Below are positions 2,971 to 11,990 of a stretch of DNA of 11,990 nt, piece by piece (positions within the stretch are counted from its first letter, which is position 1; every line of letters begins with the position of its first letter). The stretch spans positions 1 through 11,990 of the IMG/VR virus record IMGVR_UViG_2744054628_000002; one strand, written 5' to 3'. A program made the translations under genes and the position numbers. Source of the DNA: a virus (lineage: Duplodnaviria > Heunggongvirae > Uroviricota > Caudoviricetes). The notes under the pieces were generated by a model. That model was not told the DNA's origin. It was given only the letters and a program-made list of their open reading frames with translations, and did no database searches.

Positions 2971-3145
2971 GGCTGCGGGTGCTTGAGGCTATCTGTCTCA
3001 GGCATGAACACCAAAGGCAGATAGAGAAAAGCCCCAGTTAACATTACGCGTCCTGCAAGACGCTTAACATTAATCTGAGGCTCAATCTATGAACGGCAAA
3101 TCTAGGTTAGCCTCTTACGTGCCGAAAGGCAAGGAGAAGCAGGCT

Positions 3146-3301
3146 ATGAAGCAGCAAAAGGCGATGTTAATCGCCCTGATCGTCATCTGTTTAACCGTCA
3201 TAGTGACGGCACTGGTAACGAGGAAAGACCTCTGCGAGGTACGAATCCGAACCGGCCAGACGGAGGTCGCTGTCTTCACAGCTTACGAACCTGAGGAGTA
3301 A
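3146..3301 (+). CDS. hok: Hok-family type I toxin (small membrane host-killing peptide), 51 aa
   Basis: Translation MKQQKAMLIALIVICLTVIVTALVTRKDLCEVRIRTGQTEVAVFTAYEPEE matches the Hok/Gef/RelF(HokD) family as I recall it: single TM helix and conserved C-terminal AVFxAYE. ATG 3146; AAGGAG at 3131-3136. The ORF-track start 3089 is an in-frame upstream ATG. Confidence 0.9.
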   Translation: MKQQKAMLIALIVICLTVIVTALVTRKDLCEVRIRTGQTEVAVFTAYEPEE

Positions 3302-6145: not shown

Positions 6146-6221
6146 GGCCCTTTAGCTCAGTGGTGAGAGCGAGCGACTCATAATCGCCAGGTCGCTGGTT
6201 CAAATCCAGCAAGGGCCACCA
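6146..6221 (+). tRNA. tRNA with CAT anticodon (Met or lysidine-type Ile2), 76 nt, CCA encoded; probably the ileX/ileZ-like tRNA that lambdoid and Stx phages carry after Q
   Basis: Hand-folded cloverleaf: acceptor GGCCCTT/AAGGGCC, D-arm GCTC-AGTGGTGA-GAGC, anticodon loop CTCATAA (CAT at 6179-6181), T-arm GCTGG-TTCAAAT-CCAGC, discriminator A, CCA 6219-6221. Close to E. coli ileX as recalled. Confidence 0.85.
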
Positions 6222-6366: not shown

Positions 6367-6731
6367 GTGGTTGCACTCCTGTTGTTTCTGGTGGTGATGG
6401 TGGACTTCAGCAGCCGGATAATGTCGGTGCTGTCTGATGGTGTTTTGGTGGCGGGTGTGTGGTTGTTGCTTTCCCGTTGCTGAAAAAGAAAGCATCAGGC
6501 GATTAGCAGGGTATCAGTTACCCGTTGAAATTTTTAAATACCTCACAATTCCACAGCTTGATGATTGTCTGGCTGCCGGAGAATTTGTTAAAAATTACAT
6601 CGCATGGTGAATCCCCCTGTGCGGAGGGGTAATCAGCGAGTAGGTATATGGGATAATCGCGGATTCAGGTGCTGGTACTGAATTCACCGGGAGGCACCCG
6701 GCACCATGCAATGGCACATAGCGCCACTCTC

Positions 6732-6759
6732 CAGCCCCTCTCCGGAGGGGCTGTTTATA
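6732..6759 (+). terminator. GC-rich hairpin followed by T-rich tract; candidate intrinsic terminator
   Basis: 9-bp stem CAGCCCCTC / GAGGGGCTG with TCCG loop (6732-6753), then TTTATATTGATTTTG. U-tract is interrupted, so strength uncertain. Confidence 0.4.
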
Positions 6760-6787
6760 TTGATTTTGTCAGATGTGAGTAAACTCC

Positions 6788-7123
6788 TTATGGACTTTGT
6801 TGTTTTAGTCCATAAGGACATATTTGCAGAATGCAACGGTTATTAAAGCATTCATTCAATACGTTATCTGTATTTGTAGGGCATTCCTGGCTGTTTTTGA
6901 TTAAATTCCAGAATGTTTTATTGAATGGTACTACGTTGTAAATGGTTACAGGTAGCACTTTGTTATTGAGCATGATGCCTGTGTGAGTCAGTGTAAATAT
7001 ACTTTCAGGAGGTAAGAAAGCATCCGATTGATACCAGATTATTAATTTTATTTTACTCCATATGACTGAAAAAGATATTCCGCATGATGGCTGGATAACT
7101 GTATCAATCACAATCCACTTCAT
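6788..7123 (-). CDS. hypothetical Cys-containing protein in AT-rich moron, 111 aa, no recognisable family
   Basis: ATG at 7123 (- strand) preceded by AGGA with ~6-nt spacer; stop at 6788-6790. Opposite strand to all flanking phage genes, AT-rich, and sits in the Q-to-S cargo slot. No signal peptide evident. Confidence 0.6.
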
Positions 7124-7382
7124 TTACTTTCCTTGTTTATGCCTTGCTGGTGATGTTCTGAAAAGTATAAATGATATTTTTGAATTAAACCATAGAGCAG
7201 AATTATTTTTCTGATGTTGTTTATTGTTTATTTAAATACAGGGTGGTTTATATCTCGTCTTGTAGTTTATCCATGCATATCTGCTTGATAATCAGGTTTT
7301 TATTTAAGGTATGGTTTTGTGTTTTTTCTGTATTACATGTCAGGTATTTTAAAGAATTATTTTTCAGATGGTGGAAAGAACC

Positions 7383-7571
7383 ATGGCATTTAAACACTAT
7401 GATGTTGTCAGGGCGGCGCCGCCGTCAGATCTTGCGGAAAAGCTGACACATAAACTGAAAGAGGGCTGGCAGCCGTTTGGTAGTCCGGTGGCCATAACCC
7501 CTTATACCCTGATGCAGGCGATTGCAGCAGAAGGTGATGTGGTGGTCAGCGGTGCAACTGAGCCGGAGTGA
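7383..7571 (+). CDS. small conserved lambdoid-prophage protein found upstream of lysis genes (possibly DUF1737-like); function unknown
   Basis: ORF 7368..7571; internal ATG 7383 has a better purine-rich RBS (GGTGGAAAGA). N-terminus MAFKHYDVVRAAPPSDLAEKL resembles small proteins I recall at this position; family name is tentative. Confidence 0.5.
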   Translation: MAFKHYDVVRAAPPSDLAEKLTHKLKEGWQPFGSPVAITPYTLMQAIAAEGDVVVSGATEPE

Positions 7572-7814
7572 TACTACGTCATCGTACTGGCCCGGCATTC
7601 CAGGCCATAAAAGACAGTCTGGCAGTGGGACTAAATGCACTGACGCTGACGGATATTACCAAAAATGCAACGTATGGCGTTGAGATAGAAAGTCTGGTGC
7701 TGGAGATAAATGCACCGGCATCATCATAAAAAGTGAGCCAGTCAAATGGAAGGTATCGTTAAACTCACCGGTAGTGTCAGTGGGTCGTCTGAGACGCTTG
7801 CATGAGTTATCAGA

Positions 7815-7843
7815 GCCATCAGTAGTTAACTGGTGGCTTTTTT
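7815..7843 (+). terminator. intrinsic terminator immediately upstream of the holin gene
   Basis: 8-bp stem GCCATCAG / CTGGTGGC (one G-T wobble), 7-nt loop, then TTTTTT (7838-7843). Lies inside the GTG-initiated extension of ORF 7774..8094, supporting the ATG 7879 start. Confidence 0.55.
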
Positions 7844-7878
7844 ATTGTTGTCAGCTTCCGGATAACGGGAGACGGGGT

Positions 7879-8094
7879 ATGGACCAGATGGAAAAAATCA
7901 CAACAGGTGTGTCATACACCACGTCAGCGGTGGGAACGGGCTACTGGTTCCTGCAGTTGCTGGACAGGGTTTCCCCGTCTCAGTGGGCGGCAATAGGCGT
8001 GCTGGGGAGTCTGCTGTTTGGGCTGCTGACATATCTGACTAACCTGTATTTCAAAATCAGAGAGGACCGTCGTAAGGCTGCACGGGGAGAGTAA
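7879..8094 (+). CDS. S: class II holin / pinholin (phage 21 S-like), 71 aa, with dual-start motif Met1...Met4
   Basis: [15 protein letters not shown]...[40 protein letters not shown]: two TM segments plus charged tail, similar to S21 as recalled. GGGAGA RBS 7867-7872, 6-nt spacer. Confidence 0.85.
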
Positions 8095-8098
8095 TTCA

Positions 8099-8449
8099 AT
8101 GACTCAAAACTATGAACTGATTGTGAAAGGGATCCGCAATTTTGAGAATAAAGTTACGGTAACTTTAGCGTTACGGGACAAAAAACGCTTTGACGGTGAA
8201 ATTTTTGACCTGGACATCTCGCTGGACCGTGTTGAAGGTGCCGCGCTGGAGTTTTATGAGGCAGCAGCCAGAATGAGCATCAGACAGGTCTTCCTGGATG
8301 TTGCTGCCGGGTTATGTGAAGGGGATGAGCAGTCGCCGGAAAAGCGCCCCGTAATTTTAGAGGCGCAGAATGTATGGATAACCTACAAAGGAAAGCTACC
8401 GGGAAGAATTACTGGTTCTCTGAAGACTCCTCCGGAATCACAACCTTAA
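8099..8449 (+). CDS. hypothetical protein between holin and endolysin (YdfR-like by position and size; possibly DUF1327), 116 aa
   Basis: ATG 8099 follows holin stop TAA 8092-8094 by 4 nt. Positional match to ydfR between essQ and rrrQ in Qin, from memory. No catalytic motif recognised. Confidence 0.65.
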   Translation: MTQNYELIVKGIRNFENKVTVTLALRDKKRFDGEIFDLDISLDRVEGAALEFYEAAARMSIRQVFLDVAAGLCEGDEQSPEKRPVILEAQNVWITYKGKLPGRITGSLKTPPESQP

Positions 8450-8512
8450 GTCACTGACCGGAACAGATAAACCTGTCCGTGGGCAGAAACCGATAAATCC
8501 TGATAAATATCC

Positions 8513-9046
8513 ATGAACGCAAAAATCAGATACGGCCTGTCGGCTGCCGTTCTGGCACTGATTGCCGTCGGTGCGCCCGCGCCTGATATTCTCGACCAGT
8601 TTCTGGATGAAAAAGAAGGTAACCACACAACGGCATACCGCGATGGGTCCGGCATCTGGACCATCTGTCGGGGTGCCACGATGGTGGATGGAAAACCCGT
8701 TTTTCCCGGTATGAAACTGTCGAAGGAAAAATGCGACCAGGTCAACGCCATTGAGCGTGATAAGGCGCTGGCATGGGTGGAGCGCAATATTAAAGTACTA
8801 CTGACCGAACCACAAAAAGCGGGTATAGCGTCATTCTGTCCCTATAACATTGGCCCCGGTAAGTGTTTCCCGTCGACGTTTTATAAGCGGCTGAATGCCG
8901 GTGATCGTAAGGGCGCATGCGAGGCGATTCGCTGGTGGATAAAAGATGGTGGGCGCGATTGCCGCATACGTTCAAATAACTGCTATGGACAGGTTATTCG
9001 TCGTGACCAGGAAAGCGCATTAGCCTGTTGGGGGATAGAGCAGTGA
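8513..9046 (+). CDS. R: SAR endolysin (T4-lysozyme-like muramidase, phage 21 R / RrrQ-like), 177 aa
   Basis: Gly/Ala-rich hydrophobic N-terminal signal-anchor-release segment ([16 protein letters not shown]), then E-x8-D-x5-T catalytic pattern ([16 protein letters not shown]) and C-terminal ALACWG, as in R21-type lysozymes. Confidence 0.9.
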
Positions 9047-9504
9047 GCAGAGTCGCCGCGATTATTTATGCTTTGGTTATCTGCATCATCGTCTGCCTGT
9101 CGTGGGCGGTCAATCATTACCGTGATAACGCCATCGCCTACAAAGAACAGCGTGATAAAAAAGTCAGTGAGCTGAAGCAGGCGATCGCCACTATCGCTGA
9201 CATGCAGCAGCGTCAGCGTGATGTTGCTGCGCTCGATGCAAAATACACGAGGGAGTTAGCTGATGCGAAAGCTGAAAATGATGCTCTGCGTGATGATGTT
9301 GCCGCTGGTCGTCGTCGGTTGCACATCAAAGCAGTCTGTCAGTCAGTGCGTGAAGCCACCACCGCCTCCGGCGTGGATAATGCAGCCACCCCCCGACTGG
9401 CAGACACCGCTGAACGGGATTATTTCACCCTCAGAGAGAGGCTGATCACTATGCAAAAACAACTGGAAGGAACCCAGAAGTATATTAATGAGCAGTGCAG
9501 ATAG
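9043..9504 (+). CDS. Rz: i-spanin Rz, 153 aa
   Basis: GTG 9043 overlaps the R stop (TGA 9044-9046) and follows GGGGGA. Product [31 protein letters not shown]... is near-identical to lambda Rz as recalled. The ORF-track start 9028 is TTG inside R. Confidence 0.9.
9263..9445 (+). CDS. Rz1: o-spanin Rz1 lipoprotein, 60 aa, embedded in the +1 frame of Rz
   Basis: [24 protein letters not shown]...[29 protein letters not shown]: lipobox VVGC, proline-rich; matches lambda Rz1 as recalled. GGGAG RBS 9251-9255. Confidence 0.9.
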
Positions 9505-9535
9505 AGCTGCCCATATCGATGGGCAACTCATGCAA

Positions 9536-9829
9536 TTATTGTGAGCAATACACACGCGCTTCCAGTGGAGTATAAATGCCTAAAGTAATAAAACCGAGAA
9601 ATCCATTTACGAATGTTTGCTGGGTTTCTGTTTTAACAACATTTTCTGCGCCGCCACAAATTTTGGCTGCATCAACAGTTTTCTCCTGTCCAATTCCCGA
9701 AACGAAGAAATGATGGGTGATGGTTTCCTTTGGTGTTACTGCTGTCGGTTTGTTTCCAACAGTAAACGTCTGTTGAGCACATCCTGTAATAAGCATTGCC
9801 AGAGCGGCAGAAAACAACATTTTTTTCAT
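9536..9829 (-). CDS. bor: Bor lipoprotein (serum-resistance / Iss family), 97 aa
   Basis: From ATG at 9829 (- strand): MKKMLFSAALAMLITGCAQQTFTV...LEARVYCSQ with lipobox ITGC; near-identical to lambda Bor as recalled. The ORF-track start at 9877 is an upstream extension. Convergent with Rz. Confidence 0.9.
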   Translation of the reverse strand: MKKMLFSAALAMLITGCAQQTFTVGNKPTAVTPKETITHHFFVSGIGQEKTVDAAKICGGAENVVKTETQQTFVNGFLGFITLGIYTPLEARVYCSQ

Positions 9830-10212
9830 CTTATTATCCTGCATTGTTAAAAACGGCAGAATCCTATGTGACAACAATTAAACGATAGTTAAATGGATTG
9901 ATGAAAATTAAAACTATATAGGTGGATGCTCAGCCTATCGGAGGTAGTCAGGATTTGAATGTCAGTCTGTTGTCGGCATTCTGGCAATGCAATTTGGATA
10001 AAGCGGGGATTAAAAAGATAGAGGCGAGCCGGTCAGGTAGAAATGAATCAGGCTCAAAGTGAAGCGGAAAAGGTCTGTGGCACAAGCTGATGCAGCCATA
10101 ATTACAGCCTGATGATTTGTGGAATGAAACATGTTGAACCTCCTTAATTGATGTTATTCGAGTGATGAAGGCATTCTGTCCTTCTATAGTGTCCAGTAAA
10201 TCAAACAGGAAA

Positions 10213-10234
10213 CTTGTCCAACGTGTTGGACAAG
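10213..10234. repeat. perfect 10-bp inverted repeat with 2-bp spacer (CTTGTCCAAC GT GTTGGACAAG), candidate operator
   Basis: Arms are exact reverse complements; additional TGTCC-containing half-site-like copies lie just upstream (~10177-10196). About 90 bp upstream of the G start. Confidence 0.5.
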
Positions 10235-10325
10235 CCTCTCCATTAGTGAGTTGTATTGATCACAACTCTACAAAGAATTCATTACTGGGTAGATGAAAAT
10301 AGTTTCACTATGAATGGAGGAGGCT

Positions 10326-10748
10326 ATGTCGGTGGCTTCTTCATTGGAGTACCGTCAGTTAATGAGGATAGATGTGATGACTAAAAATATCCGTAATCTG
10401 GCACTGGCAGCGATGTCGGGGTTTCGCCATAAAACTGTTGATGTGCCTGAATGGGAAGGGGCAACGGTTGTATTACGGGAACCTTCTGCAGAAGCCTGGT
10501 TGCGCTGGCAGGAGATCGTTAAAGCAAAAGATGATGAGACACCGTTATCCGTTGCGGAGCTCGCCCGCCGAAATCTGGAAGCGGATGTTGAACTGTTCAT
10601 CGATGTTCTGTGTGATACCGGACTGCAACCTGTATTTTCAGTGGATGATCGTGAACAGGTGATTGCCGTGTATGGCCCGGTGCATGCGCGGCTTCTTCGG
10701 CAGTCTCTGGAACTGATCAGTGATGCCGGCGAGGTTAAAAAAAAGTAG
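10326..10748 (+). CDS. G: tail assembly chaperone G, 140 aa
   Basis: ATG 10326 with GGAGG RBS (10316-10320); ORF ends EVKKK-TAG with the slippery heptamer A_AAA_AAG (10739-10745) just before the stop. The ORF-track start 10314 is an upstream in-frame ATG without a good RBS. Confidence 0.75.
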   Translation: MSVASSLEYRQLMRIDVMTKNIRNLALAAMSGFRHKTVDVPEWEGATVVLREPSAEAWLRWQEIVKAKDDETPLSVAELARRNLEADVELFIDVLCDTGLQPVFSVDDREQVIAVYGPVHARLLRQSLELISDAGEVKKK

Positions 10749-11050
10749 CGCTTCCGGGGATGCGTTTTCTGATGATGCTGGCGCTCAGGATGGGGCGCAC
10801 ATTGTCAGAGTTACGCCGGGAAATGTCCGCATCAGAAATCATGATGTGGGCAGAGTTTGACAGGTTCAGCCCGCTGGGGGACGAACGGGCTGATATCCGG
10901 GCTGCCCAGATTGTTTCAGCTGTTTACGGTGCGCAGGGGGTCAAAGTGCCACTGAATGATGCGCTTCTTCAGTGGGAGAAGGAGCAGACAGAAGGCGTAT
11001 CAGATCCATTTGCTGGACTGGAAAACGCGCTTTTAATAGTGTCTCAGTGA
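10739..11050 (+). CDS. T: T segment of the G-T tail assembly chaperone fusion, reached by -1 programmed ribosomal frameshift at A_AAA_AAG
   Basis: The -1 frame is open from the slip site through ...VALPGMRFLMMLALRMG... (ORF 10760..11050) to TGA 11048-11050. The fusion product would span 10326..11050. Confidence 0.7.
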   Translation, partial: KKVALPGMRFLMMLALRMGRTLSELRREMSASEIMMWAEFDRFSPLGDERADIRAAQIVSAVYGAQGVKVPLNDALLQWEKEQTEGVSDPFAGLENALLIVSQ

Positions 11051-11058
11051 GTCAACAT

Positions 11059-11990
<932 letters not shown>

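Follow-up and report, generated by a model that had tools for sequence, protein, structure and literature searches.

What became of the packaging, head and major tail genes of a prophage in which the lipoprotein gene bor is followed directly by the tail assembly chaperone gene G, and what occupies the gap between the two? These questions are raised by an 11,990-nucleotide stretch of viral DNA, the whole of which was analysed and is referred to here as the window. A first-pass annotation, which took the gene order of lambda (bor-cos-Nu1-A) as its reference, had noted that about 500 bp of non-coding DNA without a recognizable cos separate the two genes and that terminase, portal, capsid and major tail genes are missing. 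It had proposed a large internal deletion or rearrangement in a defective prophage that retains accessory cargo, and had suggested that the breakpoints be mapped by BLAST against related prophages and phages.

Genes flanking the gap and the parental gene order

Family matches on both sides of the gap (Table 1) agree with the placing of bor directly before the tail chaperone, and the gap itself measures 547 bp (9830-10376). Positions 9500-9944, which include bor, match the Rz-bor region of lambda-type phages at 99.6% identity, and the chaperone is 100% identical to that of intact prophages. Comparison with these relatives places the native chaperone start at the ATG at 10377, not at 10314 (the start in the longest-ORF listing) or 10326. 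An A8 slippery run lies at 10737-10744 in G, and a -1 shift there continues into the T frame, so that the chaperone ORF ends in a slippery run from which the -1 frame enters a T domain, as in lambda-type G/G-T pairs. Genes for terminase, portal, capsid and the major tail (tail-tube) protein are all missing from the ORF list of the window, in line with the earlier reading.

The intact relatives comprise phage vB_EcoS-640R1 (ON470612) and prophages of E. coli EC958 (ST131) and PigCaeca_2, to which the retained segments are 98-100% identical; close relatives of the window prophage are integrated beside ompW in E. coli. Like the window, these three elements carry antiterminator Q, a lysis cassette, bor/iss, the spacer, the tail chaperones and the tape measure gene in the same order (97.5-100% identity), whereas, unlike the window, they are complete, with a further 8.2 kb that extends from HNH into the major tail gene and 7.2 kb that extends from the tape measure gene into J. 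The parental order after bor is the spacer, an HNH gene, a cos-like site, P27-family TerS (Terminase_4), TerL, portal, an HK97-type (S78) protease and an HK97-fold capsid. This HK97/SfIV-type packaging module filled the deleted interval in the parent and is wholly absent from the window. A Nu1/A-type terminase and a lambda cos do not follow bor in the relatives, where only bor and the tail modules are lambda-like. Since the deleted module is of HK97/SfIV type, the lambda frame of cos-Nu1-A was unsuited as a reference. Comparison at the level of sequence thus shows the window to be part of a lambdoid prophage that combines lambda-type lysis and bor, HK97/SfIV-type packaging and head, and lambda-type tail modules.

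The same spacer of about 520 bp separates bor/iss from HNH in intact relatives, which indicates that it is native and was not made by a deletion. The description of the gap as non-coding stands in so far as there is no long ORF, but what fills it is a native spacer with internal structure and not filler left by a deletion.

Table 1. Positions in the window of the features from bor to the end of the stretch
Feature	Position	Strand	Remarks
bor/iss lipoprotein gene	9536..9829	-	97 aa, intact; Pfam Lambda_Bor E = 3.7e-30
Lambda-type sequence upstream of bor	9830..9944		Lambda-like phage homology stops at 9944 (mosaic joint)
Relic 3' end of SfIV-type Rz1 (o-spanin) gene	9945..10062	+	BLASTP 23/29 identities to SfIV Rz1 residues 74-102
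40-aa ORF MFHSTNHQAVIMAASACATDLFRFTLSLIHFYLTGSPLSF	10010..10132	-	ATG at 10132; Shine-Dalgarno AAGGAGG 10139-10145
K1-5 (Vectrevirus)-type single-subunit RNA polymerase promoter (predicted) ATTTACTGGACACTATAGAAGGA	10179..10201	-	Predicted +1 at 10184
Conserved stem-loop, core GTCCAAC-NN-GTTGGAC (GTCCAACGTGTTGGAC)	10209..10238	-	13-pair stem; 5' end of predicted T7-type transcript
T7/Berlinvirus-type promoter (predicted) CAATACAACTCACTAATGGAGAG	10236..10258	-	Predicted +1 at 10241; 29.0 bits
Junction of deletion 1	10350..10352		8,214-8,219 bp lost; 2-3 bp microhomology (AC or TAC) common to both flanks
Last four codons (TVS*) of Ig-domain major tail gene, ACCGTCAGTTAA	10351..10362	+	Sole remainder of that gene
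Tail assembly chaperone (G analogue), intact	10377..10748	+	Pfam Phage_TAC_1 E = 7.7e-57
T frame of G-T chaperone	10760..11050	+	Pfam Phage_tail_T E = 3.1e-19
Tape measure gene, first 246 codons	11097..11834	+	Pfam TMP_3; collinear with relative L001 up to its position 21015
Tail tip protein J from about codon 765	11835..11990	+	Pfam Ig_J_second; in-frame fusion to tape measure

The two deletions and their junctions

Window positions 6560-10352 and 10351-11834 are collinear with vB_EcoS-640R1 and the two E. coli prophages at 97.5-100% identity. In each of the three, a single element carries the two pieces, 8,214-8,219 bp apart, and the 8.2 kb of the relatives inserts exactly between window positions 10352 and 10351. 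The missing segment begins 3 bp ahead of the HNH start codon and stops 12 nt short of the end of the major tail gene. The short flanks are ...GGAGTAC|ATATGCCC on the left (HNH start) and ...CTGTAAC|CGTCAGTTAA on the right (major tail gene end). Intact elements read ...CATTGGAGTAC|ATATGCCCCC on the left, where the ATG is the HNH start codon, and ...CACTGTAAC|CGTCAGTTAATGA on the right, while the window reads ...CATTGGAGTACCGTCAGTTAATGA across the junction and contains no filler DNA. As no foreign DNA is present, this is a deletion and not a rearrangement; of the two events envisaged at first, the deletion is thus confirmed to the base pair by the proposed BLAST mapping, with the accessory cargo kept. 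As read from three annotated and several unannotated relatives, the lost block contains, in order, an HNH endonuclease, P27-family small terminase, large terminase, portal, HK97-family prohead protease, major capsid, head-tail connector, head closure, gp10-like protein, tail completion gp17 and the Ig-domain major tail protein. A cos-like sequence, GGGGAGGGGCAGGTCAAATC, follows HNH in the intact relatives and is similar to the SfIV sequence immediately preceding the right terminus of that genome; it has no match within the window, which upholds the earlier remark that the gap holds no cos-like sequence.

The first deletion has also brought the Shine-Dalgarno region of the HNH gene and an upstream ATG (10326, after GGAGGAGG) into frame with the chaperone, and gene callers consequently report an extended chaperone of 140 aa. 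This 140-aa ORF is a handy exact-match marker of the deletion in sequence databases.

A second deletion, of about 7,168 bp (7.2 kb), has its junction at 11834|11835, with a 3-bp microhomology (TAT) and no inserted DNA. Lost with it were the genes M, L, K and I, the greater part of the tape measure gene and two thirds of J. The window stops within J; if the remainder of J is intact, the fusion predicts a chimeric protein of about 640 aa.

Junctions of this kind could be assembly or chimera artefacts, since prophage repeats often misassemble and the contigs carrying the first junction are short (2-2.6 kb). The 140-aa ORF, which starts at 10326 and crosses this junction, was found on nine such contigs from ENA and Logan runs. 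Six contigs of different accessions were retrieved as loci (one from an ENA metagenome assembly and five from Logan runs, several of them occurring in three to four samples) and are 99.9-100% identical to the window across the junction; five of the six cross the second junction as well, and both junctions recur in at least five independent data sets. Independent assemblies are not expected to create the same chimera at the same base, which makes an artefact very improbable. The juxtaposition of bor and G could alternatively be the native order of some phage family whose structural genes lie elsewhere, and the window does span only part of the prophage. No positive support for this was found, and it can be given practically no weight: every relative with both flanks has the full block from HNH to the major tail gene between them, contrary to a native order in a known family, and the breakpoints cut genes, leaving 12 nt of the major tail gene and fusing the tape measure gene to J.

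Database searches locate the two pieces widely and the junctions nowhere among complete genomes. Neither junction occurs in any of 5,426 complete E. coli genomes, and the first is absent from 50,697 phage records. Exact-junction scans found neither of them in species-representative genomes and did not find the first in metagenome contigs, and none of the relatives retrieved by look-ups of the cassette protein and of YdfR carries a junction. Positions 9500-11990 split into pieces when searched against the E. coli genomes and the phage records, with no single place covering them. The left piece (9900-10352) has 100% identity to a stretch of the E. coli genomes that match best, and several induced phages share it at 99.8-100%; in 584 complete E. 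coli genomes at least 80% of the query is covered. The right piece (10350-11834) is 100% identical to the region of the major tail gene end, chaperone, T and tape measure in other E. coli prophages. As the junctions recur in contigs and are absent from genome collections, they represent a derived, lineage-restricted state and not the gene order of the family. On this sequence evidence, the deletion scar is a real, inherited state of one lineage.

We conclude that the window almost certainly belongs to a defective prophage that arose by two recent deletions and in which the gap between bor and G is mostly the native bor-HNH spacer. The deletions would be products of illegitimate, microhomology-mediated recombination, microhomologies of 2-3 bp being too short to prove the mechanism. 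That they are recent follows from the retained segments, which are still 98-100% identical to intact prophages, and from the intact G/G-T frameshift signal. Collinearity with a complete phage, minus essential morphogenesis genes and with breakpoints that cut genes and contain no foreign DNA, is what a cryptic prophage presents, and the earlier view of a defective prophage that has kept its cargo through an internal deletion is borne out. The element would be unable to package DNA or build heads and tails while keeping Q, the lysis cassette, bor and other cargo. From the loss of the terminase, portal, capsid and tail tube genes we infer that it would produce no virions. The earlier suggestion that the prophage is non-inducible goes further than this, as the immunity and integration genes lie outside the window. 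Nothing suggests that the missing genes have been relocated elsewhere in the genome, and no inserted DNA marks the junctions.

Retention of tail chaperones, a lysis cassette and cargo genes might also be expected of a streamlined satellite that, in the manner of PICIs, uses the capsid of a helper phage. Such elements have their own packaging signal and genes for redirecting helper capsid or terminase. No cos-like site, small terminase or capsid-size-redirection gene is present in the window; moreover, the tail genes persist as fragments and the rest is 98-100% identical to a complete phage, so that we regard a satellite as highly improbable and retain the defective prophage. DLP12, Rac and Qin of E. 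coli K-12 are likewise defective lambdoid prophages that keep antiterminator and lysis genes (and, for DLP12, a bor homologue) and have lost morphogenesis genes. These remnants are old and heavily decayed, whereas the window deletions are clean, with junctions marked only by microhomology and retained parts nearly identical to functional phages. We are highly confident that this is a defective prophage produced by two clean deletions, which is a commonplace finding. The deletion itself is of minor significance, as one more disabled prophage whose cargo (bor, lysis genes, hok) persists, and its one point of value is the base-level resolution of both breakpoints.

Further cargo was observed elsewhere in the window. 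A two-gene cassette (370 aa and 333 aa, at 399-2528) lies between a DUF977 gene and hok; its products have only weak Pfam matches (HEPN/RES N-terminal domain 1; GNAT acetyltransferase), and PADLOC gave no hits for four window proteins other than the spacer peptide, this cassette included. The 333-aa protein is recorded in 15,103 assembly-collection blocks, and the places retrieved are lambdoid prophages. The cargo of intact relatives differs at this position, and because the closest of them (L001 and L002) have different genes there, the position has the look of a slot for variable cargo or defence genes. At 3089-3301 there is a gene for a Hok-type small toxin, MKQQKAMLIALIVICLTVIVTALVTRKDLCEVRIRTGQTEVAVFTAYEPEE, which is named hokD in relatives. 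A tRNA-Met (CAT) gene (6146-6221) lies downstream of the Q antiterminator gene, where two relatives have tRNA-Ile and tRNA-Arg, and an IraM/PmrD-like gene (6788-7123, minus strand) precedes the holin gene.

Anatomy and variants of the bor-HNH spacer

Beyond the mosaic joint, homology to Shigella phage SfIV begins at 9943, with 85% identity to its Rz1-to-HNH interval. The relic of the Rz1 gene is considered non-functional, since a lambda-type Rz/Rz1 of the prophage itself is present at 9043-9504. Other features of the spacer lie on the minus strand and form a cassette, in the order T7-type promoter, stem-loop, K1-5-type promoter, 33 nt, the Shine-Dalgarno sequence and the 40-aa ORF, followed on the same strand by bor.

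Both predicted promoters are of a kind that is, to our knowledge, used only by T7-like and K1-5/SP6-like virulent phages. The T7-type site was scored with a matrix built from 13 annotated promoters of Yersinia phage Yepe2 (training range 26.9-37.3 bits); the next best site in a scan of the whole window reached 6.7 bits. It is closest to the annotated Yepe2 phi9 promoter and departs from the consensus at -2/-1 and +3 to +6. The K1-5-type site is identical at 23/23 positions to phage K1-5 at position 12580, and that phage contains four copies of ATTTACTGGACACTATAGAAG, the first 21 bases of the site. By the 23/23 identity and the 29.0-bit score, both sites agree with the 23-bp consensus (-17 to +6) of the T7 supergroup. 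As a fact of sequence, a cassette of phage-type promoters in the bor-HNH spacer would be unexpected to specialists.

The stem-loop sits just upstream of the K1-5-type promoter, and its core is retained in SfIV, in Klebsiella phage Kp4864-1 and in all cassette variants; between the window and Kp4864-1 the hairpin is 21/22 identical and the flanks about 50%. In a BLAST search, successive parts of the 93-nt core of the cassette matched different phages: the first part Berlinvirus/T7-like phages, the middle part SP6-like phages of Klebsiella and Salmonella, and the last part Vectrevirus phages, at 4-7 sites per genome. A search of viral contigs for the hairpin core returned the prophage family and, unexpectedly, SP6-like podophages, in which it is present in multiple copies beside promoters. 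In SP6-like podophages GTCCAACGTGTTGGAC also occurs inside long ORFs, apparently those of the RNA polymerase and primase/helicase as judged by size and position (translated ...MSNVLDKGRRKD...). Occurrences in these podophages include 2977 and 5213 of L144, 5735 of L082 and 7542 of L062, and the presence of the core both beside promoters and inside ORFs suggests a site that acts at the DNA level. Singleton matches of the 16-mer in GC-rich contigs were set aside as consistent with chance by a rough estimate.

Other identities for the elements of the spacer were considered. The scan for sigma-70 promoters and terminators found no sigma-70-like promoter in the spacer; it scored the hairpin as terminator-like on the minus strand, an assignment that we did not adopt, since no T-run follows the stem in the Klebsiella version. 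Rfam gave only a chance miRNA-like match, below threshold, for 9400-10800. The prophage sRNA svsR, reported to limit phage infection, was rejected as a candidate since it is located at the 3' end of cI.

The 40-aa ORF is annotated solely in ON470612, as a hypothetical protein. Peptides of the cassette and its variants have no match among Pfam, NCBIfam or PHROGs families and no identity with a known toxin was found. All variants combine a strong Shine-Dalgarno sequence with a moderately hydrophobic ORF of about 36-40 aa, except L074, in which the stop codon is missing and the ORF extends to 166 aa. For the most hydrophobic 19-aa segment, the Kyte-Doolittle mean is 1.40 in the window peptide, 1.65-2.31 in other variants and 3.07 in Hok. 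Relative to SfIV, the 5' UTR and Shine-Dalgarno sequence are identical at 46/48 positions; by comparison, 13 of the 23 codons outside the overlap with the Rz1 relic differ, and, as all 13 differences are nonsynonymous, the peptide sequence is not visibly constrained. Capture of the whole peptide gene from a podophage was rejected because tblastn finds the peptides in temperate phages only.

Promoter content differs among the variants. SfIV carries AATACGACTCACTAATGGGGAGG and an SP6-type promoter, ATTTAGGTGACACTTTAGAAGGA, one mismatch from the SP6 consensus, which we take to be ATTTAGGTGACACTATAGAAG. Variants in Klebsiella temperate phages carry ATTAAGACTCACTATTAGGAAGG and a second element, which together with the hairpin matches multi-copy sites of 45-kb Klebsiella podophages, and two metagenomic temperate phages have near-perfect T7-type cores.

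The spacer cassette is present at no less than 80% coverage in 626 of the 5,426 complete E. coli genomes (~11%), where it is unannotated. We found no description of it in the literature, including by its exact sequences, in a search whose coverage left out most subscription journals. The bor-HNH spacer is also an insertion target elsewhere (19305-21002 in L006, equivalent to window position ~10309, and 11920-13148 in L022). In one genome a reverse transcriptase gene of the group II intron type (RVT_1, GIIM) lies about 1.5 kb past the end of homology to the window; in another, an IS3-family transposase gene intervenes between bor and HNH.

Possible roles of the spacer cassette

The cassette shares with the promoters of K1-5 (Vectrevirus), SP6 (Zindervirus) and Berlinvirus/T7-like phages the 23-bp identity to K1-5 and a T7-type score in the range of Yepe2. 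It also resembles the late-gene leaders of SP6/K1-5/T7-like podophages in having a 5' stem-loop and a strong Shine-Dalgarno sequence, a layout for which the T7 phi10 promoter-leader design offers a comparison. Unlike the podophage promoters, the cassette resides in a temperate phage or prophage without a single-subunit RNA polymerase gene, has two promoter specificities in tandem and precedes the ORF of a peptide that was not found in podophages.

One possible interpretation, which we advance tentatively and as something short of probable, is that the cassette is a trap or sensor in which the RNA polymerase of an invading T7-like or K1-5/SP6-like phage fires the mimic promoters and so harms the cell or the invader in an abortive-infection manner. 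The tandem promoters would be silent until an infecting phage brings its own RNA polymerase, which would then produce the ~40-aa peptide and/or a long antisense or leftward read-through RNA from the minus strand. Either product could abort or impair the infection, so that defence would be triggered directly by promoter mimicry. Several observations favour this idea. The promoter matches are far beyond chance (23/23 for K1-5; 29 bits, where the next best site reaches 6.7), and the tandem of two specificities is unlike any single podophage. Promoter types track host-matched phages, being SP6-type in Shigella SfIV, K1-5-type in E. coli and similar to those of Klebsiella podophages in Klebsiella. 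The scan detected no sigma-70-like promoter on the minus strand; conservation with SfIV extends over the 5' UTR and the Shine-Dalgarno sequence, and a short, moderately hydrophobic ORF is present in each variant. Podophages lack the peptides, and the cassette is carried by the 626 E. coli genomes noted above. Against a trap, however, the window peptide is weakly hydrophobic in comparison with Hok, its differences from SfIV give no visible sign of constraint, and the T7-type promoter of the window is off consensus at -2/-1 and +3 to +6.

A neutral relic of recombination between temperate phages and podophages, or an element that serves the temperate phage in some other way, such as an RNA stem-loop or terminator ending the late lysis transcript, is a rival reading to which we give only slightly less probability than to a trap. 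Temperate phage genomes are mosaic and the spacer already holds the relic of the Rz1 3' end; by itself the hairpin might work on the late transcript of the plus strand, and the peptide evolves freely. A neutral relic, however, would not be expected to preserve the hairpin, two different promoter cores and a strong Shine-Dalgarno sequence through the divergence of the E. coli, Shigella and Klebsiella versions, nor to switch promoter type to suit the phages of each host.

A trap triggered by an invading polymerase would have parallels. Hok is the small hydrophobic toxin of a type I toxin-antitoxin system, and, by analogy with Hok-like type I toxins and with abortive infection triggered by phage products, the cassette would encode a short, mildly hydrophobic peptide in a prophage and is proposed to be silent in uninfected cells. 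Unlike in Hok-type systems, the proposed trigger is the action of the invader's RNA polymerase on a mimic promoter, and the Rfam search of 9400-10800 identified no antisense RNA antitoxin for the peptide. If the promoters are functional, temperate phages would have copied the promoters of their virulent competitors and made the invader's polymerase the trigger. This idea may bear on phage therapy directed at Klebsiella and at K1 and ST131 E. coli, and the sequence in question is one left blank by current genome annotation.
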